From a virus: 64,000 bases of DNA. Both the position numbers and the translations under genes were made by a program. Within the stretch, counting starts at the first letter, position 1, and every line of letters begins with the position of its first letter. The stretch lies in the IMG/VR virus record IMGVR_UViG_3300020468_000003, positions 1 through 64,000 of that record; one strand, written 5' to 3'. A model generated the notes under the pieces. It saw nothing but the letters and a program-made list of their open reading frames with translations, made no database searches and was not told the DNA's origin. This document shows positions 40,701 to 59,655 of this stretch, piece by piece.

Positions 40701-43700
40701 TGTATTAGGATAAACAAATCCTCTAGTAGTAGTTGTATGTGCTGTGCCTGTAACACCTCTCTTTGCTCTAATTATTCCTCTTTCATTGAATATATTCAAT
40801 ACTGATAATACTTCAGTTCCAATACCGATTGTAGATCCAATTGATAATGAATTAGGTATACTAGAAACATAAATGTCTGTCATAATACCAGAAGAACCAT
40901 TAGCAGGTATATCCTGATATATGTTAAAGTTTTCTGTAGATATTGCAACTCTTCTCAATCCTGCAATCTGATCTACAAATGTTGATAAACCACTTATAGA
41001 AATTACATCATTAGTATTGAAAGTGTGGAAAGGATCAACTTTAACGGTTATCTTATTGTTGCTCCATTGTAAAGTACAATTTGTAAATTCTGAAACAGAA
41101 GATGCTATAGAAGTTACTGTTGCACCTTCTACTTTAGAAATGATTGCACTTGCACCACCACCATTAGTCCCTTCATTATCAAAATTAATTACATCGTCTA
41201 CTTTATAGTTAATTCCAGCATTTCTAATATCCACACCTGTAATAGATCCTTTAGTAGTAGATTCGATTTCTGATTCTTGACTAAAGAAACTTTGAGATTC
41301 AATAATAAAATCATTTCTAGATCCAGTTATACCTAACTGATGTGGGAAAGTATTTCTAACTAACTCTGATGAATTTAAATCAAAACTTTGATCTTTATCA
41401 TCTAATTGATTTAATGATCTAAATCTCTTACCTACAAAGTAAGGGAATTTTGGAGTAAATAAACCATCAGTTGATATACCTGCAAAATATGCATAAGTTC
41501 CATTTGGATATTCTGGAGTTTTACAGAATCTTGTATTATGAATATCTAAATCTCCAGTAGCATCATATCTGTAATCTTCAATGAAGAATCCATTTGCAAA
41601 TCCGCTTGGACGATCTACAATAATAGATGGATCTAATTTATAACCTACTTGTAATGGTCTTACACCCGATGTAGGATCAAGAGGATCGCTATAACCAAAA
41701 GGGCCGTAGATTGGATGTCCATCATAAGCATATCCAATGATTGGAGAGTGTGTTGTTCCTGTATCATTAAATTCTCCAGATGCTATTTCATTTGAATAAG
41801 ATAGATTAACATATTCCAATCCTTTCTTAAGAGTAGGATACAAATATTCAGATCCATGTCTTTGAGCATCATTTATAATTAGAGATCTAACACTACTGGA
41901 TAATATTGCATTTTTACCTGCTGATGTAACACTAATACTAGTTTTTGCTTGTGTATAATTTGTTCCTTCAGATATAACAACTACTTCTATAAGTTGACCA
42001 TCTCTTATAATAGGACGAACTACTGCACCACTACCATCTCCAACTACTATTGCTTCAGGAACAGAGAAATATTCAGATCCTCTAGATCTAACATCAACTC
42101 TAATAAGTTTACCACCAACTACAACAGGATATAATGATGCACCTTTACCATTTTTAATACTAACACTAGGAGATCTCTCAAAGTTTAATGTTGTGCTTCC
42201 ATATCCAGTTCCAGTTTCATAAAGATAAGCATCTATAATATTACCTCTAACATAAGGTGTTGCTGTGATAACCCCTGTACCTGCTGCACCGAACGAAACG
42301 TTAATGTTTAACTTTATGTCTGGATACTTGAATTGGTGGAACCCAGACCCAACAGAGTCTAATTTAATGTATAACTTACTATCATAATTATCTCTAATAG
42401 TTCCAGCAACACCTGCATCAGCAACTCTAAACTGATCTTTACTTTTCTCAAAGATATAATATTGATTAGTAGTAACTAATCCAGATATAACAGTTCCTGA
42501 ATTTTGATATTCTACTAAATCACCTTCTTGGAATCCATGATTTTTAAAATTAACAAGATGATCTATAGTAGATATGCCAACTGGTTTAACACTTAGCTCT
42601 CTATTTTGATAATTAGAACCTCCTTCTATAACTCTAATTGATTTTAAAGTCTTCTTACCATTAAAAGTCCTAAATCTATGAATACCAGAATTAGAAGTAG
42701 TAGTAAACCCAACAGTATTAATACCAGTTTTGAAATCAGTTTCGGAGAAATATAATCTAATTGTTTTTGAGTTTACAAATTCTGCGATATATTTTGTATT
42801 CTCTATTAAAAATCTATTCTGATCTGCATTAGAAGCAGCAAATGTTCCTATCCCTAATGCAGGATTACCATTTGTTCGGTATACAACTTCTTCTCCATCT
42901 GCAAAATTATGTTCTCCTAAAAATGTAATAGTTTCTGCAGTCTCTCCTATACCACCACCAAATGTTAATAATCTAGCATCAAAACTAGCACTTAAGAATG
43001 ATTGCTCAACAACTGGTTCTAAAGCAACACCATTACCAGGACCTCCACCAGTTATACTAACAGAAATAACTTTATCTAATTCTTTTGTTTGAGGATCTAC
43101 TAAAATTTTATCAACAGATCCACTAAGAACTGGTCTTACAAGTGCTGTTGTTCCTGATCCAGTATTTGCAACCTCCATAGTTGGTGGATTTATAACATCA
43201 TAACCAGTTCCTGAGTTTACTACGTTTACAGATGTTAAAGGACCTGAATATATTTTATCTTGAGATTTGTAATTCTTAATCTCAACACCATTTATCATCA
43301 TACCCACAGTTTCTGTGGTAGTATCTAATCCATCATTCTCTCTAGGTATTAACGGAAACTTTCTAAGAAGTTTTTGTGGTTCAATTTGTTTTTGATGAAC
43401 AGATCTTAAAGTAAAAGTATGTTTTCCTCCAACTCCTACAATTAAAGGATCAAATTCAAGATTTAAATCTCCTTGGATAAAAGAGTTTGATGAATAAAGT
43501 TTAATTTTATTTTTATCGTTTAATACTCTAACGTAATATGATTTACCTGTATCTAATCCTGTGATTGCTACATTTTCTGGTTCATAAACAACTTCATCGC
43601 CAGTTAAAAATGGAACGTCAGTAGGGAAATTGATAATAGAATATGCCAATTCTCCTGTATCTGCTTGTAGAGCATTAGTTTCCGTGTTTCCTGCACCAAT

Positions 43701-45491
43701 AAAGGTTATAGCAGTTCCAACCACTATAGATGGTGTTGAAGGTACAGTGTCTTGTCTAAATGTATAAGATGGAAGAGAGTTAGATGCAACATACAAAAAC
43801 TCTTCACCATAAAATCCAAAATCAAGATCTTCGCTATAAACGTTCTGTACGTCCGCAAATAAGTCTGAATATTGTAGAGGTACAAATTTACTTGTAGTCT
43901 TCTTTGGTACTCTTCTAATCGAATGTGGGATGCTTGCATCAGTGCTAAATCCAGTATAATCTAGTGTTACTTGCTTATCATTAAAATCAATAGCAGTAAC
44001 TTTAGCATTTGTTAATTTTACCTCTTTAGTGCTATCGTTTATAATATCAACGCGATCATTTATTTTTAAACTTGCTTTATCAATTGTAGACTTTAAAGTA
44101 AACTGTTTTGTACCTGTATCAATATTAGAACATTCATAACTGGAACTAGTATTGTATATGAAAGAATTAGCAAATCTTTCCTTATCAGTTCTATCTGCTG
44201 CTGATACTGGATTATTAATTACATCTCCTAATTCTTTAACTGTTATTTTTTCATTAACTAATGCAAGACCTGCATCTTTTGCAAGATTTATATTTGATAC
44301 TATTGCTGCTACTCTTAAGTTAACTGGTTTAGTGAAATCTCCATTTTCGTAACCAAATATAATTTTGTCAGATCTAATATCAGCAGCTGCTGTAATATCA
44401 TTATCAATACCAGAACAATTTAAAAATTGGTTTATTGTTTTATCAGTATATGTTATAGTGTTAATACCACTAAGAACAGTTCCAGTTGCATCAAACCCAA
44501 CAGTAGAATCAACTGTAATTACTGAAGATCCAGCTGAAACATTAGTTATAGATTTTGTATTAGGAGTTACTTCAAAATCCCCTTCAATGAGATCTTTATT
44601 ACTATATCCAATAAACAGTGCTAACTTATAATATGTCTTATTATTTCTAGTTAATATTTCAATTTCAGATACTGCTGCTTTTGTTCTAGGATTACTTTTA
44701 CTATAAATTGTTTGTCCTACTAATTTATTAACATCTCCTGATAGTTTTTCTACTAAAACTATTTCTCTTCTAATATATTCTGCATCAGAGGGTTTTAATA
44801 GAAACTGTTCTAAGTCAATAACAGAAGGTGAAACACCAAATAAAACTTTGTAGAGTATTCTAAATGATTCTTCTGTACCTTTTGATTGATAAAAAGTTCT
44901 TGCTTCTTTAATAAAATTACCAGCATCCAATTCAGGTACGAAACCTACATCTTCTAAACCAGGTGTATATGAATATTTTATCTTTTTATAAAATTCTTTT
45001 AAAAATAAAGAACTTAAATTCTGTACTGGAGATTCATTAGTATGATCTGCACTAACCGATGTATCAAATACAAGTTCTTCTGAATCACTAAGACTATGGT
45101 AGGATGTTATTCCACTAAAACCACGTACACAACCTGTAAAAGTATTTGTAGTTAAACCAGTATATGTAATTATTTCATCATCAATCTTAAGAAGACCATA
45201 TTCATTAGGAAATCCTCTTGTACTTTCAACAGTAATAGTACTATCTGTTGAAACAGAATCTGAAGTAAGAGAAGTAACACCTACAATAACTTGTGGTGTT
45301 AATTGGTCAAGACTTAAATACTGGTCAAGATTATCAACCAGGTCAATAGGACCTCCTTGATACTCCTGTGAACGGTAGTATTGCTGAAAGAATTCTACTG
45401 TCTTAGGACTTTGATCTAAAATATATTCAGGTAATTGTCCTTCTATCAGTTGGTGAACCTTTACTCTCGATTCGATACCAGTTTGTATCAT
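31731..45491 (-). CDS. g7: Giant baseplate wedge initiator (gp7-like), 4586 aa
   Basis: QLPE....P....F...YY, FY.SKGT..SF..L..VLFG, DNDYYQ..SYS.KS, V..LVH..G.K.F; lies between g6 and g8; many inserted domains. Confidence 0.8.
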   Translation of the reverse strand: MIQTGIESRVKVHQLIEGQLPEYILDQSPKTVEFFQQYYRSQEYQGGPIDLVDNLDQYLSLDQLTPQVIVGVTSLTSDSVSTDSTITVESTRGFPNEYGLLKIDDEIITYTGLTTNTFTGCVRGFSGITSYHSLSDSEELVFDTSVSADHTNESPVQNLSSLFLKEFYKKIKYSYTPGLEDVGFVPELDAGNFIKEARTFYQSKGTEESFRILYKVLFGVSPSVIDLEQFLLKPSDAEYIRREIVLVEKLSGDVNKLVGQTIYSKSNPRTKAAVSEIEILTRNNKTYYKLALFIGYSNKDLIEGDFEVTPNTKSITNVSAGSSVITVDSTVGFDATGTVLSGINTITYTDKTINQFLNCSGIDNDITAAADIRSDKIIFGYENGDFTKPVNLRVAAIVSNINLAKDAGLALVNEKITVKELGDVINNPVSAADRTDKERFANSFIYNTSSSYECSNIDTGTKQFTLKSTIDKASLKINDRVDIINDSTKEVKLTNAKVTAIDFNDKQVTLDYTGFSTDASIPHSIRRVPKKTTSKFVPLQYSDLFADVQNVYSEDLDFGFYGEEFLYVASNSLPSYTFRQDTVPSTPSIVVGTAITFIGAGNTETNALQADTGELAYSIINFPTDVPFLTGDEVVYEPENVAITGLDTGKSYYVRVLNDKNKIKLYSSNSFIQGDLNLEFDPLIVGVGGKHTFTLRSVHQKQIEPQKLLRKFPLIPRENDGLDTTTETVGMMINGVEIKNYKSQDKIYSGPLTSVNVVNSGTGYDVINPPTMEVANTGSGTTALVRPVLSGSVDKILVDPQTKELDKVISVSITGGGPGNGVALEPVVEQSFLSASFDARLLTFGGGIGETAETITFLGEHNFADGEEVVYRTNGNPALGIGTFAASNADQNRFLIENTKYIAEFVNSKTIRLYFSETDFKTGINTVGFTTTSNSGIHRFRTFNGKKTLKSIRVIEGGSNYQNRELSVKPVGISTIDHLVNFKNHGFQEGDLVEYQNSGTVISGLVTTNQYYIFEKSKDQFRVADAGVAGTIRDNYDSKLYIKLDSVGSGFHQFKYPDIKLNINVSFGAAGTGVITATPYVRGNIIDAYLYETGTGYGSTTLNFERSPSVSIKNGKGASLYPVVVGGKLIRVDVRSRGSEYFSVPEAIVVGDGSGAVVRPIIRDGQLIEVVVISEGTNYTQAKTSISVTSAGKNAILSSSVRSLIINDAQRHGSEYLYPTLKKGLEYVNLSYSNEIASGEFNDTGTTHSPIIGYAYDGHPIYGPFGYSDPLDPTSGVRPLQVGYKLDPSIIVDRPSGFANGFFIEDYRYDATGDLDIHNTRFCKTPEYPNGTYAYFAGISTDGLFTPKFPYFVGKRFRSLNQLDDKDQSFDLNSSELVRNTFPHQLGITGSRNDFIIESQSFFSQESEIESTTKGSITGVDIRNAGINYKVDDVINFDNEGTNGGGASAIISKVEGATVTSIASSVSEFTNCTLQWSNNKITVKVDPFHTFNTNDVISISGLSTFVDQIAGLRRVAISTENFNIYQDIPANGSSGIMTDIYVSSIPNSLSIGSTIGIGTEVLSVLNIFNERGIIRAKRGVTGTAHTTTTRGFVYPNTFEIPIESSFFDSSLNEKVFFNPTESVGVGSTAGIESTIEYPLGDRNYDISIANQSIYLPNHPFRSGERVILRKNAGGSSISVANTESSATFDIGDTDQNLFVINKSSDFIGIVTQSGLTTSTNGLFFFSNGSDNYEYSLEPTKNKIICVVQKNDAVISVSTAHNLQPDDQISLSVVPNRSVGIGTSTKVRVKYNFDIEKLVIDPIGFTSTAIDTLDNIVTLNNHPFVTGEKIYYNAQDEVATGLEPGLFYVYKIDKNRFKLALTYEDSIASPPKIVSIGSTGGAEQELSAINPRLFPTKGNNVVFDLSDSTLQGFKFNLYTDQTFENQFVSVANTTTFSTSGVGTVGVTSTASFTLTYTDALIDVVPDPTQPLFYNVEKGGFISTADSTVVNFNQITFDNSKYDGTYSVVGVASTSFVISLLKDPELNLYTPDNTTTMKYSTDSKNALGPISKLKMVSEGNDYKQLPGISSITTLNGSDAVLFAQSPTVGKIKEIRVIDQAFEYNTDKSLRPEANIPSTLELKSNLTITDVQIVDGGNNYTTAPDIAIVDSITGEKIDDGILTTEVQSSSVSSINIFEQPSGLNFNSKNLFTINNSNGVGISTMQTSSSGIVTCFLTTPLLGFSTSIFTVGEQIFVEGITKNGIGGSGFNSEDYGFRFFDVISYENLIPAKLKFSVAGLTTNPGLADTTQGSFATIVKRSNYPVFKVTQGKSKFVSGEQLFVNGESTDLNVTTVLPDYIKTSGKFEVKSGDSLRGVQSGSSGTIEAIIKSDAKFDIDFSVRANRGWKKNTGELNNDIQVLPDNDYYQNLSYSVKSPIQYKDSIDVINRLVHTTGLKNFVDVGLSTNTSVGIGVTTVKSLIFTDLIDESRVDTIYGFAQARDADNQLIEGRNTSKFLEFRFKSFVDSIICKTNRVLVIDDVSKQFTNKENVNDTFIDLDESGKDFARYLVQIRSTNNLQNAIYEMIVLHDPQFESAFTLRKGYLSSTGIANTTTNEYNWTELEFATLEGNVDEFDTLSLRFTPNDVFNIDYDVKFIKDTFNGNVVGLASTSIGLIKNQSTNAIVGVGSTNTILEYDSDNFDAMHVHLHLNANDLYTQNYTELYVHHDGTDTYVSDYYVDSDSAQGFNGNDFSNFVASVANGKLTLSYTNPLTVPVTVRANAVGFGSTSNADGALRFKIGTSQADGNERSAYFSGNSTVGTGETTIFSADATLTNSIKSLVSVSYGATYALHQILTLSPDSTDTYSTQYPFLSIGSTTGIGTFGAAIDGSNVAVKFYPDSSVTGIVTIKSFNEVLYQEVEIENLYQNINYGSIKTQEFGIGLFDATNSSRINKTSFRMDYQDTPIFQKFWNPSETTVLNKVTGEFSITNHFFETGEELIYRAGSSVAGLTSTSIGIGVTADSIGIVTNKLPYQVYAIRTNNEKFKIATRPEYAAAGIAVTFTDEGSGNKHSFEMVKKLEKAIISIDDVIQSPLSYTPIVYDLEANGGQIGTASTVFSMTGITSIGNGDILKIDNEFMKVGGVGLGTTSVGPISDGDVKLVEVIRGYVGTAATLHTDGTAARIYRGSYNFAGQNIFFTDPPKGSGLVTINESNLPKGFSEFNGRVFLRKDYTNNLIYDDVSNEFTGIAQTFTVRQSGVSTTGIETGSGLVLINGIFQTPTTDNNAGNNFFYKQSGSDSQITFTGITSTDGTPVVSLQDPNQNAFPKGGLIISLGSTTGLGFAPLLGADVLPVIGAGGSISGIIGIPTFTTPGKSISTASYDFNTGILDLTTGTAHNLNAQNQDVYLEGARFTSALGITTYGNSTLGNIFRITEIVDSTNIKVKIGISTFDQTYVGFGTVYPYYNSTARAFGSGYNGRVAIGVSVYEPGHVGNTANITAEVKTNKHKFWYSTANNIYYGGNYLHTFDSASTGAVNVQSGSEVGNQKTPNGASYDAISGVLTLSFSSAHGMSTSDTITLDEGSINFKCARDHFATVHAYPRPHDPIAGVTTAVTVTSSTAFTINVGASVNSSVSISTASYEPSTGDLVLNLGAGHGFTAAGILTTSSASYNPSTGVLTVNTSTAHGMVTGERVQLADNSFTFTCAKDNNISEHYYPREDDPASGRWLAITKVDADTFTVVVGTSSDTSTHTFVGSQPGNIRTDGPNGSIGIHTRSLTFRCAQDNFATDHSYPRATDPIHRAVLGIGATTTETITVNAGTSVNGTGGQVEFTIVDGGSGYTNPDVLVDEPTYTDLDITGVSRRGIGATTVTGINELINLKLGANSSPIFANRFADAADLIEANKLIIADISVGEMLDVYPSFSVPGGSQNCKDDVVDVLEAVAFNLRFGGNDEIWDAANLYITGAHVAGEEQESIYVFHAARDLANKVINNVAIAKSDYTTRDQVFDLTITADPAVGYNTDANGCANVRSSINSFIGIVTSSIGFGTVTSKKSFAPAKFFEVSDFSIKGAGYAFQLGDVFAPVGLVTAKGLKKPLKPFELEVVEVFSDRFASWQFGQLDFIDPIDNLQDDVRTVFPLFYNAELVSFQIDTNDNDSKLIDIDATLVVFINGVLQEPTKAYLFDGGSSIQFLEAPKKEDKVSIFFYNGTRSIDSVETDIAESVKVGDTLSVRKASGIQTSVNQSEGRIVYDIASSDRIETNAYADAGIDEFNDRSVNWTKQKRDIFINGEKISKARDSIEGMVFPTSRIIRDVNVGDTDILLDNGQFFNYEENESSVVTAYVDAVVLDEINTVSAAATATVDSSGKVTATTITNTGFGYTTATVDVKFSSPKFIGVGIGTTATGTATITNGAVASISVTNVGLGYTNSLNTPVPPQIIIPQPRLINEVVTNIQSVQGNTGIITGISTVAGIGTDLAIKFFTNNTTDLQVGYHIVVTDSTVGSGVTSIYTHDNDIIGVGTEFVDNIFRVHQIPVANEIVCNIKSDTITTGIQTLGTSIYNPNGYYSWGRLTNLVRNSEPIAIGISGRTVTAGLSTYPLIQRRGYGLRDNGAIRKTLPD

Positions 45492-51539: not shown

Positions 51540-51574
51540 ATTATAAAGGATAAAGGGGGTACTTGTAAACCCCC
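51540..51574 (-). promoter_or_regulatory. Early-type promoter plus hairpin, without the palindrome (module 0)
   Basis: TTTACA, 18 bp spacer, TATAAT; GGGGGT/ACCCCC hairpin; start ATACACAAAC. Confidence 0.7.
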
Positions 51575-51586
51575 GAAAGGAAAATA

Positions 51587-51763
51587 TTAATCTTTGTCTG
51601 TATATTCTCCTTCTACAACTCTATTACCGTTAAGAGCATACCAGACTAACTGAGCATGTCCGAACTGTTGTGCCATGTCGTAACATAGGTCGAATCCGAA
51701 GTCATTTGTAACTTCTTCTTTAATATCTGTATTTGGAACTTCGATGAATTTTTGAATGAACAT
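51587..51763 (-). CDS. Small hypothetical protein (58 aa)
   Basis: Manual translation MFIQKFIEVPNTDIKEEVTNDFGFDLCYDMAQQFGHAQLVWYALNGNRVVEGEYTDKD. Confidence 0.7.
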   Translation of the reverse strand: MFIQKFIEVPNTDIKEEVTNDFGFDLCYDMAQQFGHAQLVWYALNGNRVVEGEYTDKD

Positions 51764-51800
51764 AATTTTTAAATTTGTTTTGAACTTTGTTTATACTTCT

Positions 51801-51862
51801 ATTATAAACAATTTTTTGTCTCTTTTGGGAAAATAGTGGACAGTTTGTTCGACTGTCCACTA
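51801..51862 (-). promoter_or_regulatory. Early module 1 (palindrome + -10)
   Basis: TAGTGGACAGT-TTGTTCG-ACTGTCCACTA at 51834-51862; TATAAT at 51801-51806, 29 bp from the GTGGAC arm. Confidence 0.85.
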
Positions 51863-51867
51863 CTGGT

Positions 51868-52158
51868 CTATCTTAGGTGTGCGTAGTTTCCTGCGGGATG
51901 TGGATTTGATTTAGTGTAACCAAATGAACTGAAAAACTGATCAAGTAGTTTGTAATCTAATTCCTGATTGAGTTCCCATTCCATTCTGCCATTCTTCTCA
52001 ATCCTTTTACCAGAGTAAAGTTCAACTTTGGCGATTGCTTGTACTCCCCATTCTTGAATCTCATCAACGAAAGTTGAGAAGTCTTCGCATAATTCTGCTA
52101 CGTCGTTAAAGTTGTCTACTTCTCTGATTCTGTTGATTAGTCTTTCTGTTTGATTCAT
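51868..52158 (-). CDS. Hypothetical early protein
   Basis: ORF track; AGGAG RBS. Confidence 0.75.
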   Translation of the reverse strand: MNQTERLINRIREVDNFNDVAELCEDFSTFVDEIQEWGVQAIAKVELYSGKRIEKNGRMEWELNQELDYKLLDQFFSSFGYTKSNPHPAGNYAHLR

Positions 52159-52186
52159 GGATGGATCTCCTTTTGTTTATACTACT

Positions 52187-52245
52187 ATTATAAACACTAT
52201 TCCCCCAGAAAAGGGGGTTTAGTGTGCACTTTGTTAACTGTCTAC
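52187..52245 (-). promoter_or_regulatory. Early module 2
   Basis: GTGTGCACT-TTGTTA-ACTGTCTAC, CCCCC/GGGGG hairpin, TATAAT at 29 bp. Confidence 0.85.
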
Positions 52246-52416
52246 TTGAGAGCATGCATAATCCCAAGGTGCGGGTTCGCATATTTTTTCAATCAGTGTG
52301 TCAAAGTCATTTTCTGATTCTGCGTCAACCCATCCATTCTCTATAAAAAATTGTCCCATTTTTACGAGGACTGATTCCTCTGCTTCAGTCATTGTCAATT
52401 CACGTTCCCATTTCAT
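52234..52416 (-). CDS. Acidic hypothetical early protein
   Basis: ORF track; stop lies inside the module 2 palindrome. Confidence 0.7.
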   Translation of the reverse strand: MKWERELTMTEAEESVLVKMGQFFIENGWVDAESENDFDTLIEKICEPAPWDYACSQVDS

Positions 52417-52577
52417 GATTCAATCTCCAAAGAATTAATAAAGTTTGTACAATAACGATTAAATCGTGTAAGAGATTCAAACGGTATTTGGTCGTCTTCT
52501 TCACCGACGTAGTAAAAAAGTTTGTTAATGTCGCTCTGAAAAGTCTCCAGAGCGATTTCGTTTTTAGTGTAACTCAT
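52413..52577 (-). CDS. Small hypothetical protein (54 aa)
   Basis: Manual translation MSYTKNEIALETFQSDINKLFYYVGEEDDQIPFES...; ATGA overlaps on both sides. Confidence 0.7.
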   Translation of the reverse strand: MSYTKNEIALETFQSDINKLFYYVGEEDDQIPFESLTRFNRYCTNFINSLEIES

Positions 52578-52792
52578 ACCAGTGAATCCAGTCTGGACTG
52601 TGGAATTTCTTTTCCATCTCTAGCACCCCACTTGTTGATATGGCGTGAAGTTGTTACTGACCAAAACTGCTCTGTTTTTACGAATCCTTCACCGAAGATG
52701 TAAGCAGCAACAGGTGTGCGGTATGAAAACAAAATTCTTGCTTCTTTTGTTTCAACCTCGGTCATGTTTGATGCGATTGGTGTGAGTTGCAT
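52574..52792 (-). CDS. Hypothetical early protein
   Basis: ILFSY.TPVAA...T...WS.TTSRHINKW; AGGAG RBS. Confidence 0.8.
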   Translation of the reverse strand: MQLTPIASNMTEVETKEARILFSYRTPVAAYIFGEGFVKTEQFWSVTTSRHINKWGARDGKEIPQSRLDSLV

Positions 52793-52818
52793 TGATGCTC
52801 CTTTTTGTGTATATGTTT

Positions 52819-52877
52819 ATTATAATAGAAAACCCCCAGTGAATGGGGGTTGAGTGGACACTTATTTAACTGTCTAC
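52819..52877 (-). promoter_or_regulatory. Early module 3
   Basis: GTGGACACT-TATTTA-ACTGTCTAC, AACCCCCA/TGGGGGTT hairpin, TATAAT at 29 bp. Confidence 0.85.
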
Positions 52878-53032
52878 TTGAGACCTGCTAATAATTCATC
52901 ATTCTTTCTTCTGAGTTCTTTTAACTCCGCACGATTAAAACGACGATAATCAATTTCGGTTGCAATTGCCATGCCTACCGTATATAATGCATAGCAGCCG
53001 CCAACTAATATTAAAAGTTCAATTCCTGTCAT
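52874..53032 (-). CDS. Small membrane-anchored hypothetical protein
   Basis: Probable start MTGIELLILVGGCYALY with AGGAGG RBS; hydrophobic N-terminus. Confidence 0.65.
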   Translation of the reverse strand: MTGIELLILVGGCYALYTVGMAIATEIDYRRFNRAELKELRRKNDELLAGLK

Positions 53033-53100
53033 TTTTGGGTTCCTCCTTGGGAAGTTGTTGTTGTTTGTAATTTTTAAGAAGTTCTGCGTAAACTTCTGGA

Positions 53101-53385
53101 TCAAGCGGTTGCATAAGACCTCCCGAATCTTTCGGCATAATATCCGATATTTACATAGTCCCTTTTAAGGGTGCATATCTGGGTAATGTCTGCCAGTGCT
53201 AAAAGATGGTCGGGTGTGTAAACTGATGGATCGTCCCATTCAGAAACCGCAACTGCATTTTCAACGTCCATAGTTGTACGTCCGAGTTCGTCCGTAACTG
53301 CGGGACAACTCATAAGAAGTCCATCTTCAGCAATCCAGAATCCCATTCCGAAAGAGTGTGAGTAATGAATTTCAGGTTTTGGCAT
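53101..53385 (-). CDS. Hypothetical early protein
   Basis: Probable start MPKPEIHY with GGAGG RBS, downstream of module 4. Confidence 0.7.
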   Translation of the reverse strand: MPKPEIHYSHSFGMGFWIAEDGLLMSCPAVTDELGRTTMDVENAVAVSEWDDPSVYTPDHLLALADITQICTLKRDYVNIGYYAERFGRSYATA

Positions 53386-53407
53386 TTGCCTCCGTGTGTA
53401 TGTCTTA

Positions 53408-53465
53408 ATTATAGTACCCATTAACAACGAATGGGAAAGTAGTGGACACTTTAACCAACTGGCAC
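53408..53465 (-). promoter_or_regulatory. Early module 4
   Basis: GTGGACACT-TTAACCA-ACTGGCACA, CCCATT/AATGGG hairpin, TATAAT at 28 bp. Confidence 0.85.
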
Positions 53466-54377
53466 AAAGCGACCACTATTAAAATTTGCGTATGAGAAAA
53501 TATGTCTATAAACTAATTTGTGCATACCGAACTTATTCGTCATTACGAATCCTTCGCCTATGTGCTTGTCATAACCTAAGTATGCTTGAACTGGATCGCT
53601 GTGAGTCAATCTGCTCATAACGTCCGCTTTAGTTTCTTGAACTAACTTCCAGTAGTTTATCAACCTTCCATGAATCCCGTAGTTAACGGGATCCACTTCT
53701 TTCCCTTCCCTATAGTCTTTATTTATTTGTTTCTTTAACTCTTTAGCGGTTTTATTATCTACGAACTGGATCCCCTTCGCCATATGTCTAATGAAATCAA
53801 TAGACGGTTTTAAGTTAGATATTGGATCGTTTTCTCTCTCCTTGACTTCTGCTCTGATGAATAAACAGTCGTCCATCTTTTCCCAGTTGTAATAATATGG
53901 AAAAGATTTCATAGGGTGTGCTTCAGCATTTGCAAGATTGTCTGTGCACTGTGTGGTGATGTATTGCGTGTGAGGTGCAATAATGATCTTTTGATCTACC
54001 ACGTCAGGGAATTTATATGTTAAGGTATTAGGTTTGTATTCATCAGAACCACCAAAACCAATAAAGTCCCCCTGAAAAACCATATAACCTAGATGGTGTG
54101 GTATGTGGTCGAAACACGCATGAAGAATTTTTGCAACTTCTCCTGTGTGATTTGCGTCAATATCCTTGTGTGAGTAATTGATCTTGATTTTGATCTTGTT
54201 AAAGACGCTTTTAGTACCCACGAAAAATCTGTGAGTCTTTGGATGATTACCCCATACAACTGCGGGTGCACCATCATATTTTAATGAGATGTTCCCACCA
54301 CCAGTAAACCAATCTAGCACGGATAAATCCCCTGTTAGGATTGTGTCTTCTGGATGTTCTAGGTGTGTGTTTTTCAT
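53451..54377 (-). CDS. Ligase/nucleotidyltransferase-like protein (KxDG family)
   Basis: HLEHPED, LKYDGAP (motif I), FQGDF (III), EGFVM (IV), HKLV (V). Confidence 0.65.
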   Translation of the reverse strand: MKNTHLEHPEDTILTGDLSVLDWFTGGGNISLKYDGAPAVVWGNHPKTHRFFVGTKSVFNKIKIKINYSHKDIDANHTGEVAKILHACFDHIPHHLGYMVFQGDFIGFGGSDEYKPNTLTYKFPDVVDQKIIIAPHTQYITTQCTDNLANAEAHPMKSFPYYYNWEKMDDCLFIRAEVKERENDPISNLKPSIDFIRHMAKGIQFVDNKTAKELKKQINKDYREGKEVDPVNYGIHGRLINYWKLVQETKADVMSRLTHSDPVQAYLGYDKHIGEGFVMTNKFGMHKLVYRHIFSYANFNSGRFVPVG

Positions 54378-54383
54378 ACCTTT

Positions 54384-54442
54384 ATTATAACGAATAAAAG
54401 ACCCTCTGTGTAGAGGGTGTGTGACACTTAATTAACTGTCAT
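54384..54442 (-). promoter_or_regulatory. Early module 5 (leaderless)
   Basis: TGTGACACT-TAATTA-ACTGTCAT, ACCCTCT/AGAGGGT hairpin, TATAAT 6 nt before the ATG. Confidence 0.8.
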
Positions 54443-54614
54443 AATCCGAGCCATCATATTCGCCTTCATAGTTATCATCGTAAATACGAACGGCTAACTC
54501 CGCATCTTGGCTTAATTTAATCCCTGCTCTATCAAGTGCTTCCCAAATCTTGTTAGAAATGTGGCTGTGTTCGTCTTCGGGGATATGTTGAAAAAGGTTT
54601 AAGTAGTTTTCCAT
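54432..54614 (-). CDS. Acidic hypothetical early protein
   Basis: ORF track; stop lies in the module 5 palindrome. Confidence 0.7.
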   Translation of the reverse strand: MENYLNLFQHIPEDEHSHISNKIWEALDRAGIKLSQDAELAVRIYDDNYEGEYDGSDYDS

Positions 54615-54889
54615 TAGAATTGCTCCCTCCTATCGTGGATAAATTCTTGCAATTCTTCATACGCACCTTCTTGATCTAATACCATAGGTGCAAGAAATTC
54701 ATACAAGTTTTCATCATAATCATCAATCTCATCTCTGATTTCATCCTCCGTGCATCTGTTCAATTCGGCAAGATAAGTTGTACGAATCCAGTCTGCCATT
54801 TGTTCGGTGTTCATATCGTTGATATAAAATTCAACGAATTCTTCCCTTAAGTCTTGGATTTGCTCTGCTGAAAATAATGATGTAATCAT
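54614..54889 (-). CDS. Acidic helical protein (paralog family A)
   Basis: LREEFVEFYINDMNTEQMADWI. Confidence 0.75.
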   Translation of the reverse strand: MITSLFSAEQIQDLREEFVEFYINDMNTEQMADWIRTTYLAELNRCTEDEIRDEIDDYDENLYEFLAPMVLDQEGAYEELQEFIHDRREQF

Positions 54890-55131
54890 AGTTCTAAAAG
54901 TTTTAAATTGAATGGTTTTAATTTATCATCGAAGAAATCTTCTCCTCCGAAATCTATCATTTCCCCGAATGCACCCTCTTGCCCATCAACAATTTTAATA
55001 TTTTCAAGGTTGTGGTGTAGATTGTCTCTTACATATTCTCTGAGTTGATTAACTTCCATATCTTCTACGAAGTCGTTAACCCAACTACGAACCAACTCAT
55101 CATATTTGGACTGTACCAGTTCTAACTTCAT
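54886..55131 (-). CDS. Acidic helical protein (paralog family A)
   Basis: LVRSWVNDFVEDMEVNQLREYV. Confidence 0.75.
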   Translation of the reverse strand: MKLELVQSKYDELVRSWVNDFVEDMEVNQLREYVRDNLHHNLENIKIVDGQEGAFGEMIDFGGEDFFDDKLKPFNLKLLEL

Positions 55132-55346
55132 GCTACCAACCCCTCTAGAACTAATTGTTGCTGTGGAATTTCTTCTTCTTTGATTTCTACAGTTTCATAA
55201 TCGAATTCTTCCCAATCAAAATCATAGTAATCCCAACCATTTTCTGCTTCCTCTTTGGCTTCTTCAAGACTACTTGCCTTAACTGTAAAGTACTCCATCT
55301 TAGTACATTTACGAGTTACATAAAACTCATGTTCATAAGGTTTCAT
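55128..55346 (-). CDS. Acidic hypothetical early protein
   Basis: V.A.S.EEA.E.A motif; translationally coupled. Confidence 0.75.
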   Translation of the reverse strand: MKPYEHEFYVTRKCTKMEYFTVKASSLEEAKEEAENGWDYYDFDWEEFDYETVEIKEEEIPQQQLVLEGLVA

Positions 55347-55489
55347 TAGAACTGCCTCCAGTGGTAAGAATTTTCTCCGTTAATCTGTTTGATTAACGCA
55401 TCTGCCTTTGCCTGATCTTCTTTTAGGAAGTCGTCTGCAAATTTGATCAAGTCTAATAGTCCTTGAACATCTTTGTTTTTGTTGTCCAT
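55346..55489 (-). CDS. Small hypothetical protein (47 aa)
   Basis: Manual translation MDNKNKDVQGLLDLIKFADDFLKEDQAKADALIKQINGENSYHWRQF; TAATG overlap. Confidence 0.7.
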   Translation of the reverse strand: MDNKNKDVQGLLDLIKFADDFLKEDQAKADALIKQINGENSYHWRQF

Positions 55490-55513
55490 GTAGAACCCCT
55501 TGTGTATGTCTTA

Positions 55514-55570
55514 ATTATAGTACCCATTAAATACGAATGGGAAAAAAGTGGACAGTTGTTAAACTGTCCT
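55514..55570 (-). promoter_or_regulatory. Early module 6
   Basis: GTGGACAGT-TGTTAA-ACTGTCCT; near-identical to module 4; TATAAT at 28 bp. Confidence 0.85.
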
Positions 55571-55999
55571 AGTTGTCTTTGGGATTTCTACGGGTTTCGT
55601 GTAGAATCCTGTAATCTTCCATGTCTCGTCGTCATGTGTGATGTCTGTTTCATACGCATGCCATTTACCTTTCAAGAAGATGTAAAGGAATTCGGAACCG
55701 CAGTCAATTTGTGCCAGTTCATCAAGATTTTTTGATAGGACTGGTCCCTCATCTTTCCCACCATAATATTCAACGTGACCTTCGCAATCCTCGAACTCTT
55801 CGGTTTCCTTGTTATACTTGCTTGTAGAAAAGCACGAAGACATATTGCCACCGTCGATGAGTTCGCGAACTGTCTCATCTGTGTTGTAGTGCTCTTCAAG
55901 AGTTACACCCAACCATTCAGGATATCCATCCCAGTGATGATAAACAGAAAGAATGGAATCATCTTGTAATACATAACCAATTCGTGAACGTGTTGACAT
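55559..55999 (-). CDS. Hypothetical early protein (HWDGYP family)
   Basis: MSTRSRIG...SVYHHWDGYP..LG..L...Y...LIDGG.MSS. Confidence 0.8.
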   Translation of the reverse strand: MSTRSRIGYVLQDDSILSVYHHWDGYPEWLGVTLEEHYNTDETVRELIDGGNMSSCFSTSKYNKETEEFEDCEGHVEYYGGKDEGPVLSKNLDELAQIDCGSEFLYIFLKGKWHAYETDITHDDETWKITGFYTKPVEIPKTTRTV

Positions 56000-56020
56000 A
56001 ATGTTTTTAAAAAATGGATT

Positions 56021-56139
56021 GTAGAGGTACTTGCACCAGAGTAATTAACTACTGGGGTCGATCTCGACATTTCAAGAGTGGGACTAAGATGCATCTGCCC
56101 TGTTAAGGTGTCTCCCGCTTCACTATCTCTGCCCTCTAC
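56021..56139 (-). ncRNA. Candidate structured RNA / 5' leader (~119 nt)
   Basis: Starts at the predicted TSS of module 7; terminal helix GUAGAGG/CCUCUAC; internal hairpins GUCGA-GA-UCGAC and CCAG...CUGG. Confidence 0.55.
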
Positions 56140-56145
56140 TCTTAT

Positions 56146-56203
56146 ATAATAAACGATTTTGAGTCGTTTTCAATAAAAAGTGGACACTTATTTAACTGTC
56201 CAC
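56146..56203 (-). promoter_or_regulatory. Early module 7
   Basis: GTGGACACT-TATTTA-ACTGTCCAC; AAACGA/TCGTTT hairpin; TATTAT at 28 bp. Confidence 0.8.
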
Positions 56204-56434
56204 TCTTGATTTTTTGAAGTCGCATTTCATGTAGTCTTGGACTTCATCAATAACTTCACCGAAGTAATCACCCCAATAATCCTTCGCATCATTTAGAAAT
56301 TCATCGTCAGTTTGACCATCAACATATTTGTCCATGTCGTTGTGAACATACTCAACTAAATCTTTAGTGTCCATGTTATCAACATATCTCTCAACAAAGA
56401 AAGATTTGAGCTCATTAATTAAGGCTTTGTCCAT
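56192..56434 (-). CDS. Acidic helical protein (paralog family A)
   Basis: Probable start MDKALINELKSFFVERYVDNMDTKDLVEYV (TAATG overlap). Confidence 0.75.
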   Translation of the reverse strand: MDKALINELKSFFVERYVDNMDTKDLVEYVHNDMDKYVDGQTDDEFLNDAKDYWGDYFGEVIDEVQDYMKCDFKKSRVDS

Positions 56435-56583
56435 TATCCCATTTCCTCCAATATTTGCTGTGCACGAACTCCTGCAACATACTGAGCATCTTCGCAATGT
56501 GGATCTAATCCTGCTTCTTCAATCTGTAATAGTAGATCTTCAAAGATTCCTTCTAGTAGTTCTTCGTTTGCTAGGCAACTCAT
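56434..56583 (-). CDS. Small acidic hypothetical protein
   Basis: Probable start MSCLANEELLE with AGGAG RBS. Confidence 0.7.
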   Translation of the reverse strand: MSCLANEELLEGIFEDLLLQIEEAGLDPHCEDAQYVAGVRAQQILEEMG

Positions 56584-56610
56584 TTTGATCTCCTTTGTTT
56601 GTATATTATT

Positions 56611-56667
56611 ATTATAAGTCCCCACTCTTACGAATGGGGATTTAGTGGACACTTTTTAAACTGTCCT
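56611..56667 (-). promoter_or_regulatory. Early module 8
   Basis: GTGGACACT-TTTTAA-ACTGTCCT, TCCCCA/TGGGGA hairpin, TATAAT at 28 bp. Confidence 0.85.
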
Positions 56668-57130
56668 ATAAGTACCCTGCAGATTCACATCCTGGTTCAT
56701 CATAGAACCACTGGATCGAAACTTTTTTATATTGTCGTTTCAGTTCAGAGGCAACGTCTTCGGGTGGAGCCCATGCTGTGTCGAAATGGATCTGGAAATA
56801 ATCCTCTTCGTCGTCTCCCCATTCGACTGCATCCTTACGAATGTCCCATTTAGTTCCCCAGTTATGAACATTCCAGTCGTACCATCTGTCATCATTTTTT
56901 CCATCTGGGAAGTAATAGGATTCATAGATGAGTTTGCCATCCTTATTAAATTCCTGCCTTAGAGATGGTAATTCACCTTTATCATTCGGCATTTTTTTCC
57001 AGTCTGGTGGTGGAATGATCTTGGCGAATGGATTGTCTTGAGAGAAAATTTCTCTGATCTCATTGATCTCTTGAACACTTTCTTCATCCCATCCAGATAC
57101 TGTTACTCGGTTACTGCACCAATTTGGCAT
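56666..57130 (-). CDS. DUF1281/YubB-like ferredoxin-fold protein
   Basis: MPNWC.N, WYDW...NWGTKWD, F.TAW.PP, YDEPG...AG. Confidence 0.75.
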   Translation of the reverse strand: MPNWCSNRVTVSGWDEESVQEINEIREIFSQDNPFAKIIPPPDWKKMPNDKGELPSLRQEFNKDGKLIYESYYFPDGKNDDRWYDWNVHNWGTKWDIRKDAVEWGDDEEDYFQIHFDTAWAPPEDVASELKRQYKKVSIQWFYDEPGCESAGYL

Positions 57131-57360
57131 TAGTTTAACCTCCAGTCAATCTTAAGGTATTCTGGATCAGCATAGTTCATCAACTGTTCTGGTTCCATGT
57201 CGAATATGAATTCTTCCATGAAATATTGAACTGAGAAGTTCCCTAATTCTTCAGCACAACGAAAGACCATTCCGATCTGTTCATTGTTTAGACCTAGAAC
57301 ATCAATACAGTAAGAGATGTCCTTTTCAAGATCTGAAATTCTTTTGGAAGATTTTTTCAT
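57130..57360 (-). CDS. Hypothetical early protein
   Basis: ORF track; SV.YF.EEF motif. Confidence 0.75.
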   Translation of the reverse strand: MKKSSKRISDLEKDISYCIDVLGLNNEQIGMVFRCAEELGNFSVQYFMEEFIFDMEPEQLMNYADPEYLKIDWRLN

Positions 57361-57385
57361 AAAAACCCTGTTTGTGTATGTTCTT

Positions 57386-57444
57386 ATTATAAAGGCAAAA
57401 GGGGGTCATGTAACCCCCTAGTGGACACTTTTTTAACTGTCTAC
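57386..57444 (-). promoter_or_regulatory. Early module 9
   Basis: GTGGACACT-TTTTTA-ACTGTCTAC, GGGGGT/ACCCCC hairpin, TATAAT at 29 bp. Confidence 0.85.
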
Positions 57445-57944
57445 CTTAAGTAAAGATATCCTCCTGCCCAATCTACGAAGTTTGGATCTAATAATTTTTG
57501 TAGATCCTTTGGTTCGCAAAATGAGAATCTAACGTGCTTTGTATGCGGTGCCTTCCATGATGCGGGTTTGTATACGTTACCTAGGATCGATGGATCCTTT
57601 CCTACGAATGCATGAACGCTACCGTCGCGATATTCATTCCTATCTTGAAAAGTGTCGAACTCTTCTTGAATGATTTTGTAATACTTCCTGCCTACCTCAT
57701 AACGAAATCTCATTAGATTCGCAGTCCCGTCTTTCATCGCGTCTAACTGTTGTTTCGCATAACTTGAAAGATCTTCGCGCTCTAACTCTAGATTTCTTGT
57801 TAAGGACCTCTTGTGGTAGATGCGATAATTCTCAGTAATTGCTCTACAATAATCTTTTATGTAAGATAAAAGAAACGTTTGATCCGTTTGCTTTACTGAT
57901 TTTCCAATGATAAAATCATTTTTGGATCCAATTACTTGTTGCAT
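57441..57944 (-). CDS. Hypothetical early protein
   Basis: Probable start MQQVIG downstream of module 10; GRKY.KI, SVHAFV, G.VYKPASWKAP, DWAGGYLY. Confidence 0.8.
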   Translation of the reverse strand: MQQVIGSKNDFIIGKSVKQTDQTFLLSYIKDYCRAITENYRIYHKRSLTRNLELEREDLSSYAKQQLDAMKDGTANLMRFRYEVGRKYYKIIQEEFDTFQDRNEYRDGSVHAFVGKDPSILGNVYKPASWKAPHTKHVRFSFCEPKDLQKLLDPNFVDWAGGYLYLR

Positions 57945-57965
57945 AAGATTTGTGTATGTAATACT

Positions 57966-58025
57966 AGTATAAAGTCCCCGCGCATGTAATGCTACGAAGG
58001 TTGTGCCACTATTTAAAGTGTCTAC
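57966..58025 (-). promoter_or_regulatory. Early module 10
   Basis: TGTGCCACT-ATTTAA-AGTGTCTAC; TATACT at 30 bp. Confidence 0.75.
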
Positions 58026-58246
58026 CACATGTCATCTGGTGTGTCATATGATGTAAAATCAGTCAGCCGTTTTTCTTCTCCTGCTTCTAGAGGTACCGAG
58101 AAGTTAATTTCAAACTCGTCGCTGTAATCTTTATAGTTGGTGATTTCCACGGGACATTCATTCAACCATTCTTGAAACATCTCATATTTTGTTTTACGTG
58201 GTTTCTTACGCATTTCGTCGTACATTGCCTGTTGATAAGTTTTCAT
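58022..58246 (-). CDS. Hypothetical early protein
   Basis: ORF track; F.EWL.ECPV. Confidence 0.75.
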   Translation of the reverse strand: MKTYQQAMYDEMRKKPRKTKYEMFQEWLNECPVEITNYKDYSDEFEINFSVPLEAGEEKRLTDFTSYDTPDDMW

Positions 58247-58449
58247 TTAAGTTGTACCTCGTAGTCAATAAATTTGATGCACCATCCTGCTGATGCTGTG
58301 ATCTCTTCAATAAGATCGTCTTCATCATCCGCGTCCCAAACACCGAGTGCGAGATCCCGCAATTCGATTTCCTCATCGAATGTGAGTTTGAATCCGTTGG
58401 CATAATCGTCATCGTAATCAAACTCAATTTCTGTTACGTTAAATTTCAT
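58243..58449 (-). CDS. Acidic hypothetical early protein
   Basis: VT.IEFD...W.ADDEDDL.EEIT..GWCI..IDY. Confidence 0.75.
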   Translation of the reverse strand: MKFNVTEIEFDYDDDYANGFKLTFDEEIELRDLALGVWDADDEDDLIEEITASAGWCIKFIDYEVQLK

Positions 58450-58583
58450 CTCGTAATGATTTCCTGTAACGATGCAAGATCATCCCAAGTTTCATCATCT
58501 TCTTGAATGAATGGACAGTCCATTGCTCTGTCGAGTGCAGTACTGAAGCGATCTAGTTGCTCATCAGTAAGTTTGAAGTTCAT
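58446..58583 (-). CDS. Small acidic protein (45 aa)
   Basis: Manual translation MNFKLTDEQLDRFSTALDRAMDCPFIQEDDETWDDLASLQEIITR; GGAG RBS. Confidence 0.7.
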   Translation of the reverse strand: MNFKLTDEQLDRFSTALDRAMDCPFIQEDDETWDDLASLQEIITR

Positions 58584-58605
58584 AGAAATCTCCGTGTATA
58601 AACTC

Positions 58606-58663
58606 ATTATAGACAAAAAAATCCCCCTTGCGGGGGACTAGTGGACAGTTTCTAGACTGGCAT
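58606..58663 (-). promoter_or_regulatory. Early module 11
   Basis: GTGGACAGT-TTCTAG-ACTGGCAT, TCCCCC/GGGGGA hairpin, TATAAT at 29 bp. Confidence 0.85.
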
Positions 58664-58897
58664 AGGCAATCCATAACTGATATGATACATATCCATCATA
58701 TAATCTCTTACTCTCTCCCGATCAAGGGAATCTCCATCTCCCCACGTAACCTTAAATTCAGCAAGCGGGTCGCTGCAGTCATCAAGATATTTGAGCGTTG
58801 CATATGCGATTTGCTCTTTAGAGACGTTGAGGGGATACAACCCACCTTGCCCGTAGAATGAAAACACATAATCGATGAACTCCTGAAAATTGTGCAT
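58652..58897 (-). CDS. Hypothetical early protein
   Basis: FIDYV.SFYG..GLYP...GDSLDRERVRD. Confidence 0.8.
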   Translation of the reverse strand: MHNFQEFIDYVFSFYGQGGLYPLNVSKEQIAYATLKYLDDCSDPLAEFKVTWGDGDSLDRERVRDYMMDMYHISYGLPMPV

Positions 58898-58920
58898 GAG
58901 ATGTTTTTGTATGTATCTTT

Positions 58921-58977
58921 ATCTTATCAGTTCCTGTAGCAATTGGTCATACTATGTGACACTAATATTTCTGGCAC
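58921..58977 (-). promoter_or_regulatory. Early module 12 (first in the array; apparently bidirectional)
   Basis: TGTGACACT-AATATT-TCTGGCACA; TAAGAT at 28 bp on the minus strand and TATAAT (59009-59014) on the plus strand. Confidence 0.7.
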
Positions 58978-59026
58978 ACTGGCTGATGCATTCGAGCTCG
59001 ATTTCTCTTATAATAAATTTATAAAC

Positions 59027-59050
59027 AAAAAAAGAGCGGAAGTACGCTCT
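59027..59050 (-). terminator. Rho-independent terminator upstream of the early array
   Basis: AGAGCG-TACTTC-CGCTCT followed by a T-run on the minus strand. Confidence 0.65.
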
Positions 59051-59307
59051 CTAAAATCTTCGCCACTCCCCCTGCCTTATAATATCTCTGTGTTCCTTTC
59101 CTGATATCCAATTCTCGTACTGGCACACTCGCTGTTGCCTTCCCTTTAAAATATGTTACACTTCCTCGAACAAACCATACAAAGGTATGTATATAAAACC
59201 AAAATTTAAACTGTCACATTGTGCCAATCTAGATGCGTCACATGTCGTATAATGTATTACATGCATGAATCTCGATGTGTATCATATGTTACTAGTACAT
59301 GCGTATC

Positions 59308-59655
59308 CTCGTCGAGATGTGTGCCCCTGCTCATATGTGTGTATGATATGTGCAGGCTCGTCGAGATACATGTGCGCAAGCTCGTCTAGATGCATGCGTT
59401 CATGTGTGCGAGCTCGTCGAGATTATGCATAATGATAGATGGATAGCTCGTAGAAATCCTGATTGTTGTCTCGTCGAGAGTTATATTCCTCGTCGAGATC
59501 TAAGTCTTGTGTATAAGACTGTGTACTCTCGTCGAGATCGTCACCTGTTTCATAGTCGAGATCGTACCAGTCTGCGCAGTCTTCGTACATAGTCGAGATG
59601 AATAGAATACTTATAGTATAACACATATCTCGACTAGAGGCAAGCTCGTCGAGAT
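59308..59655. repeat. Cluster of CTCGTCGAGA(T) repeats
   Basis: Exact CTCGTCGAGA at 59308, 59357, 59413, 59470, 59489, 59528, 59645; variants at 59381, 59447, 59552, 59589 and an inverted one at 59627. Confidence 0.9.
59423..59590 (-). CDS. Very acidic Tyr/Asp-rich peptide (55 aa)
   Basis: MYEDCADWYDLDYETGDDLDESTQSYTQDLDLDEEY...; preceded by the promoter TTGCCT-17-TATACT at 59615-59643. Confidence 0.5.
   Translation of the reverse strand: MYEDCADWYDLDYETGDDLDESTQSYTQDLDLDEEYNSRRDNNQDFYELSIYHYA

Follow-up and report, generated by a model that had tools for sequence, protein, structure and literature searches.

T4-like cyanophages kill a large share of the Prochlorococcus and Synechococcus of the ocean. 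To our knowledge, they have none of the T4 proteins Alt, Mod, MotA and AsiA, which explain early and middle transcription in T4. In 2016, Doron et al. reportedly described a novel element that controls early-gene transcription in Syn9 and P-TIM40, and this element is said to be abundant and conserved among T4-like cyanophages. Phages of the T4, RB49 and KVP40 types carry promoter/stem-loop cassettes (PeSLs), which are composite terminator/early-promoter cassettes (Arbiol 2010; Comeau 2014, PMC4122927). On the host side, CGRE1 has been published as a 21-22-nucleotide (nt) palindrome in the yfr2 small RNA promoters of Prochlorococcus and marine Synechococcus, and the GntR-family protein PMM1637 (PlmA) binds and activates these CGRE1 promoters (Lambrecht 2018, PMC6191309). 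Here, we describe an array of 12 palindrome-hairpin-promoter modules in a 64-kb stretch of viral DNA (hereafter the window; positions 1 to 64000 of IMG/VR record IMGVR_UViG_3300020468_000003) and compare it with these systems. The array is very probably an early-transcription region in which a pre-existing protein bound to the palindromes would drive the promoters, PlmA being the best candidate for that protein.

An array of promoter modules between small cyanophage genes

The window belongs to a 105-kb contig (49% complete) that we identify from its sequence as an uncultured T4-like cyanophage. It encodes the T4-type major capsid protein gp23 (E 9e-149), and its megablast relatives were only Prochlorococcus and Synechococcus myoviruses (P-HM1, P-HM2, MED4-213 and S-BM3). 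The array occupies the genomic position of the early clusters of P-HM2 and Syn9, and the gene order gp25, gp6 and giant gp7 beside it is that of the P-HM2 early cluster. Its genes, about 24 in number, are small and fall into families without a known function (DUF6267, DUF7717, DUF7326, DUF1281_C and several PHROGs).

All 12 palindromes listed in the initial annotation of this DNA were recovered. On the minus strand, the gap from the palindrome end to the best -10 hexamer was 28-30 nt in 12 of 12 copies, as had been noted; nine of these hexamers are TATAAT, and the other three are TATTAT, TATACT and TAAGAT. The consensus reads (T/G)(G/T)(T/G)G(A/C)CAGTT, 4 nt, AA(C/G)TG(T/G)C(C/A)AC, 28-30 nt and TATAAT. 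A position weight matrix (PWM) built from 10 copies scored above 16 bits at 15 places of the 105-kb contig, all within 52.2-58.7 kb, compared with 0.4 in shuffled sequence. The 12 copies are a lower bound: three weaker ones with the same 28-nt geometry lie outside the window, at contig positions 71137, 77684 and 79990.

Two parts of the predicted anatomy held for most copies. A GC hairpin between palindrome and -10 had been proposed, and nine of the 12 spacers indeed fold at -5 kcal/mol or below, whereas copies 51836, 56180 and 58955 do not. A T run follows five or six of the nine hairpins, which we call terminator-like. The proposed ATA(C/A)ACAAA box was found as ATA(C/A)AC, 6-8 nt past the -10, in 10 of the 12 copies, in which a ribosome-binding site and an ATG come next. 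The stop codon of the upstream gene sits within the palindrome, in either its distal arm or its own spacer, and the hairpin between palindrome and -10 is the terminator of the preceding unit. The modules (a ribosome-binding site is abbreviated RBS below) are arranged as follows.

58897..58978, minus strand: module 1, array head; palindrome 58955-58978, TAAGAT 58921-58926, ATG 58897; 81-aa gene, phrog_7799
58955..59014, plus strand: divergent promoter with the same palindrome as module 1; 30-nt gap, TATAAT 59009-59014, toward the non-coding region
58583..58664, minus strand: module 2; palindrome 58641-58664, terminator hairpin and T run, TATAAT 58606-58611, ATG 58583
57944..58025, minus strand: module 3; palindrome 58002-58025, hairpin, TATACT 57966-57971, ATG 57944 (DUF7717 gene)
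57360..57444, minus strand: module 4; palindrome 57421-57444, which holds the upstream TAG stop; terminator hairpin, TATAAT 57386-57391, ATG 57360
56583..56668, minus strand: module 5; palindrome 56645-56668, hairpin, TATAAT 56611-56616, ATG 56583
55999..56203, minus strand: module 6; palindrome 56180-56203, no stable hairpin, TATTAT 56146-56151, ~140-nt leader, ATG 55999 (phrog_1987)
55489..55571, minus strand: module 7; palindrome 55548-55571, hairpin, TATAAT 55514-55519, ATG 55489; heads a five-gene unit
54377..54443, minus strand: module 8; palindrome 54420-54443, terminator hairpin, TATAAT 54384-54389, ATG 54377 (DUF6267 gene)
53385..53465, minus strand: module 9; palindrome 53442-53465, hairpin, TATAAT 53408-53413, ATG 53385
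52792..52877, minus strand: module 10; palindrome 52854-52877, terminator hairpin, TATAAT 52819-52824, ATG 52792
52158..52245, minus strand: module 11; palindrome 52222-52245, whose spacer includes the upstream TAA; hairpin, TATAAT 52187-52192, ATG 52158
51763..51860, minus strand: module 12; palindrome 51836-51860 (7-nt spacer), no hairpin, TATAAT 51801-51806, ATG 51763
51540..51574, minus strand: array end; terminator hairpin and sigma-70-type promoter TTTACA, 18 nt, TATAAT (11/12), no palindrome

This arrangement supports the earlier proposal that the modules head small gene units as their promoters. Each would form a compact stop-and-start signal for neighbouring units, read in the order upstream gene end, 28-30-nt spacer (usually with the terminator), -10, A/C-rich start region, RBS and ATG. 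Terminator and promoter are thereby nested, and the window offers a clean, densely packed example of this early-promoter class.

The two ends of the array depart from the common plan. The head copy, 58955, has neither an upstream gene nor a hairpin, and it also lies 30 nt from a plus-strand TATAAT at 59009, so that one site serves two divergent promoters. At the other end, 51540-51574 holds a thirteenth terminator-promoter with near-consensus -35 and -10 boxes and without a palindrome. Within the array, only 6 nt separate TATAAT from ATG in module 54420, which has no box and no RBS, and its mRNA is therefore probably leaderless. No gene of the array is longer than the DUF6267 gene at this module (308 aa, phrog_455), and at least 578 IMG/VR stretches hold a confirmed relative of this gene. 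In module 56180, the ~140-nt leader folded no better than shuffled sequence (z = +0.2).

The same module in other T4-like cyanophages, and its association with early genes of P-HM2

A pattern scan of IMG/VR followed by PWM scoring yielded 225 module sites in 111 loci. A TATAAT match of at least 5/6 stood at a gap of 28-30 nt in 129 of the 225 sites, compared with 1-5 at other offsets. The lack of a conserved -35, already remarked for the array, extends to this set: the information content was at most 0.3 bit across the -35 region of the 225 sites, and 37 of 131 sites had a -35 match of at least 4/6. The spacers folded at -5.6 kcal/mol compared with -2.65 kcal/mol in shuffles (p = 2.5e-9).

The initial annotation had suspected a link to an early element of cyanophage Syn9, and this proved right in substance, as Syn9 has the same palindrome, a 29-nt gap and a -10. 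Ahead of its small-gene cluster gp63-gp90 we found TGTG(A/C)CAGT, 6 nt, AGTG(G/T)CACA, ~29 nt and a -10. The gap to the -10 was 28-29 nt at the sites 46290, 48558, 49078, 51000, 52996, 127492, 148742 and 162053, behind which lie gp63, gp73, gp75, gp78, gp79 and three isolated genes. Because Syn9 carries the same module, its regulatory role is not new; the array itself is ordinary for T4-like cyanophages, in which that role is already known. The element of Doron et al. reportedly has the same host group, genomic setting and promoter class as the array, and its stated abundance agrees with the more than 100 IMG/VR loci that carry a module of the array type. Judged by sequence, the array very probably represents the early-gene regulatory element of T4-like cyanophages.

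Expression data from the related phage P-HM2 link the module to early genes. With expression clusters taken from the S2 Table of Thompson 2016, we classed the genes behind the 10 P-HM2 sites that share this geometry: seven belong to cluster A (early), three, which adjoin the early cluster, to cluster B (early-middle), and none to clusters C, D or E. The isolated sites 125042 and 127350 precede PHM2_135 and cobS, the sole early genes outside the main cluster; the two isolated early genes are PHM2_135 and PHM2_136. This association is strong because early genes make up only 20 of the 242 genes in P-HM2, although the sites are clustered and hence not independent. Early expression, which had been claimed for the array from its sequence, is thus supported by proxy, through the P-HM2 early genes behind the same modules. 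Contigs of the region also occur in six RNA libraries (four studies); these contigs give no starts, strands or levels, DNA carry-over is possible, and they were not used as evidence of transcription. A full-text literature search with the arm sequences returned unrelated papers only, and a paper on a cyanopodovirus MarR factor proved unrelated to the palindrome element.

The scans also brought up two further settings. Six IMG/VR loci (L001, L006, L011, L020, L022 and L025) share a near-identical unit made of a T run, TGTGACAGTTTCCTAAGTGTCCAC, ~29 nt and TATTCT. These units sit in large phage tRNA arrays with 10-30 tRNAs per locus, and a match to the abiF RNA motif lies near the unit in three of the six. 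When host-genome contigs were scanned with a 15-base pattern, chance hits dominated, and the sole cyanobacterial match was a ~194-kb phage contig in a Synechococcus metagenome-assembled genome. This contig (JBJBBP010000001.1, 193,981 bp; locus L152, contig C1 of genome G001) carries 12 phage-type palindromes along with a module of the phage type; its length is close to that of a T4-like cyanophage genome, and it is probably a phage genome binned with its host.

The palindrome has the features of a protein-binding site

We examined covariation between the two arms over all 225 sites; in each locus, one of the sites had been picked by the search pattern, and some positions are fixed by that pattern. 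The Watson-Crick fraction never rose above the expectation for independence at any arm position, and positions 8/17 form a G/G clash in 119 of 225 sites, as they do in most copies of the array. The absence of covariation argues that the palindrome is a protein site and not a hairpin: its arms appear to be conserved separately, as is the case for dimeric DNA-binding proteins. Such symmetric, non-covarying arms fit the dimeric protein that the initial annotation had placed near -53, and the bidirectional use of palindrome 58955 likewise fits a symmetric factor.

The hairpin occupies the -35 position, and the promoter would therefore depend on a protein bound to the palindrome. We propose that this protein, sitting at -65 to -42 with its centre at about -53.5, recruits host RNA polymerase and activates transcription from a start predicted ~7 nt past the -10. 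It must be present when the phage DNA is injected and is therefore most likely a host factor. The best candidate would be PlmA (PMM1637), a GntR-type regulator.

The phage palindrome shares a half-site and its register with host CGRE1

We located Yfr2-family genes by matches to Rfam Cyano-1 (RF01701) and read the CGRE1 site upstream of several of them. This gave the host site AACTG(T/G)CAC, 1-2 nt, GTG(A/C)CAGTT, a pattern that fits the published CGRE1. The exact pattern occurred once per genome in eight of 41 Cyanobiaceae genomes and not at all in a reversed-pattern control. It always stood ahead of a Yfr2 5' end of the GTGAGGAG type, at 56-58 nt in seven of the eight, which places the proximal arm 43 nt from the -10.

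The promoter-distal arm of the phage palindrome contains the core G(A/C)CAGTT in the host orientation and ends 42-44 nt from the -10; the full GTG(A/C)CAGTT is present in phage copies of the TGTG type. Host and phage promoters thus have in common the half-site core, the orientation of this arm and its distance to the -10 (43 nt compared with 42-44 nt). They differ in the side on which the partner arm lies, which is upstream in the host and downstream in the phage. Furthermore, CGRE1 acts positively on a promoter without a clear -35, and the phage modules have no -35 either. The early promoters may have retained, in exactly the host register, that CGRE1 arm which lies nearer the promoter in yfr2 genes, while the second arm was moved to the other side, which would yield a symmetric site that works in both directions and leaves room for the terminator of the previous unit. 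The relation to CGRE1, in which arm and register agree but the partner arm lies on the other side, is the new point that we consider most useful. It limits the candidates for the reader protein to those that recognize G(A/C)CAGTT.

PlmA is the best-named candidate reader because it is present in every host before infection, and we put it forward tentatively. It is conceivable, if far from assured, that T4-like cyanophages start infection by borrowing this host stress/nitrogen regulator. If true, early phage transcription would be tied to the nitrogen and light state of the host. Among the papers searched, none linked CGRE1 or PlmA to cyanophages.

Several observations weigh against the proposed reading of the early promoters, most of them against the PlmA part. 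The phage arms are inverted, with their GTT/AAC ends meeting across 4-6 nt (-65 to -42), whereas the host CGRE1 arms are everted, with CAC/GTG meeting 1-2 nt apart (-77 to -56), and a single rigid dimer cannot bind both alike. In most array copies the outer triplet is off by one base (GTGGAC compared with GTGAC in the host), so that only the 7-nt core is identical. The yfr5 promoter of MED4, which has kept one CGRE1 half, was neither bound nor activated by PMM1637 (PMC6191309), and the shared half-site alone therefore does not predict binding. The array promoters themselves, being those of an uncultured phage, are known from sequence, and their identity with the Doron motif draws on what that study reportedly states and on our Syn9 scan. 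By its arm arrangement, the phage site is not a simple copy of host CGRE1, and any model with PlmA must explain that.

No everted CGRE1 copy was found in the array when up to three substitutions were allowed, and the inverted, phage-type arrangement was weakly enriched in host genomes, in inconsistent contexts. CGRE1 written as GTTA N3 GTGTACAC N3 TAAC, following the wording of the paper, had no match in host genomes and was wrong, and a search with the complement of the Yfr1 motif recovered Yfr1 itself and not Yfr2.

The sole host-type, CGRE1-like site on the contig lies at 59209-59253 (plus strand) and consists of AACTGTCAC, ATT and GTGCCAAT, 18 nt before a TATAAT directed into the iteron region described below; the site and its -10 are kept in the relatives L371, L369 and L368 (81-99% identical). 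In one marine Synechococcus (G001 contig C2, loci L344 and L355), two Yfr2-family genes have an everted site ~8 nt from the -10, at the -35 position. This resembles the -20 placement reported for yfr2a of MIT9313, and the host element therefore works at two distances.

Possible alternative roles of the palindrome

A further role as a site of gene exchange would be compatible with early promoters. The ~80-bp modules may act like PeSLs as homology patches at which general recombination deletes, inserts or moves units, a proposal that we take seriously while holding it to be somewhat short of an even chance. Comparison with eight relatives, which share 85-100% protein identity, reveals a mosaic in which long stretches of homology often start where a palindrome has its distal edge. 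This is so at 54438-54443 in seven of seven informative relatives and also at 52878-52882 (three relatives), 55519-55571 (four) and 51550-51561 (three). In L368, the homologue of gene 55128-55346 has moved by ~1.5 kb and lies behind a second module of the 55548 type. Ocean contigs join module to module, for example 54614 to 57374 (two studies) and 52805 to 56610, and PeSLs behave in this way in the T4, RB49 and KVP40 groups (PMC4122927). However, conserved promoters set among accessory genes that change fast would produce such block edges even if no exchange took place at the modules, many block ends lie inside genes or at junctions free of modules, and the joints in the ocean contigs have short sides and can be produced by repeats. 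Both indels relative to the 98% identical L371 also lie at module-free gene junctions. The extra stretches of L371 (5499-5711 and 7585-7762 of L371) are ~200 bp each, the size of one small gene, and are inserted exactly at gene junctions within operons (window 56434/5 and 54605-54616), not at promoter modules. The PeSL comparison made in the initial annotation is apt for architecture and setting; the newest indels lie at junctions without a palindrome.

It is improbable, in our assessment, that the palindrome is instead the operator of an early-made phage repressor that shuts the early promoters at the switch to middle transcription, with the -10 alone or an extended -10 driving initial transcription. 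Early transcripts of P-HM2 do peak and then fall (Table 1, PMC5082946), one shut-off factor could act through symmetric sites shared by all early promoters, and many small proteins without a known function are encoded in the array. However, a site with its centre at -53 is outside the polymerase footprint, which is unusual for a repressor, and the promoters have neither the conserved -35 nor the TG extension expected of strong unaided promoters. In addition, the same half-site at the same distance acts positively in the yfr2 promoters of the host, and the ten largest proteins of the array yielded no DNA-binding domain.

The palindrome could also be a nucleic-acid hairpin, either a stem for RNA 3'-end formation or processing or a DNA cruciform. 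Its position at the 3' end of the upstream unit and the detection of copy 55548 as a terminator-like stem would agree with this, but complementary pairs are not in excess at any position of the 225 sites, where positions 8/17 clash systematically (G/G), no gene lies upstream of copy 58955, and the terminator role is already filled by another GC hairpin with its T run, all of which leaves a hairpin very unlikely. Least likely of all is the tyrosine-recombinase reading of the initial annotation, that of an integron attC- or Xer-type site for cassette exchange, for which only the geometry speaks (gene units bordered by 9-11-bp arms with an AT-rich core of 6-7 bp). The fixed 28-30-nt distance to the -10 and the use of one site by two divergent promoters are traits of promoters, the ends of recent indels do not fall at palindromes, and the Phage_integrase domain (PF00589) was absent from the contig (49% complete) and from complete P-HM2 and Syn9 in a search whose control matched 14 of 14 genomes.

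Features beside the array

A non-coding stretch of 390 bp adjoins the head of the promoter array and contains, at 59269-59655, about 13 copies of CTCGTCGAGAT (at most two mismatches, both orientations); the remainder of the 105-kb contig has no more than isolated chance matches. The repeats look like an iteron array, and the stretch is possibly a replication origin. The plus-strand promoter of palindrome 58955 (59009-59060) has no open reading frame (ORF) behind it. On the minus strand, transcription from a TATTAT at ~59079-59084 could stop very soon, at a hairpin and T run at 59052-59024. The sequence is thus suggestive of a divergent control region with possible small RNAs from 59009-59060 (plus strand) and 59024-59084 (minus strand).

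On the other side, 31731-45491 (minus strand) is a single ORF of 4586 aa downstream of gp6- and gp25-sized genes; its position and size match the 13.3-kb gp7 baseplate wedge gene of P-HM2. Rfam and tRNA scans over 50-64 kb gave nothing relevant.

Comparison with known systems

The array modules resemble PeSLs in combining a stem-loop, an early promoter, a Shine-Dalgarno sequence and a start codon, and in being repeated between small ORFs of a hyperplastic region, beside indels and gene displacements. They differ in the promoter itself. In PeSLs, the stem-loop precedes a sigma-70 -35 box, which stands 17 nt from the -10, whereas the array modules have no conserved -35 and carry the stem-loop in its place. 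They also add a 24-bp palindrome upstream.

The modules also resemble the MotA-dependent middle promoters of T4, which likewise have a good -10 and no -35 and in which an upstream activator box replaces the -35. Cyanophages have neither motA nor asiA (PMC2984593). The Mot box is single and asymmetric, lies at -30 and is read by the phage proteins MotA and AsiA; in contrast, the site in the array is symmetric, lies at about -53 and would be used at the earliest stage of infection.

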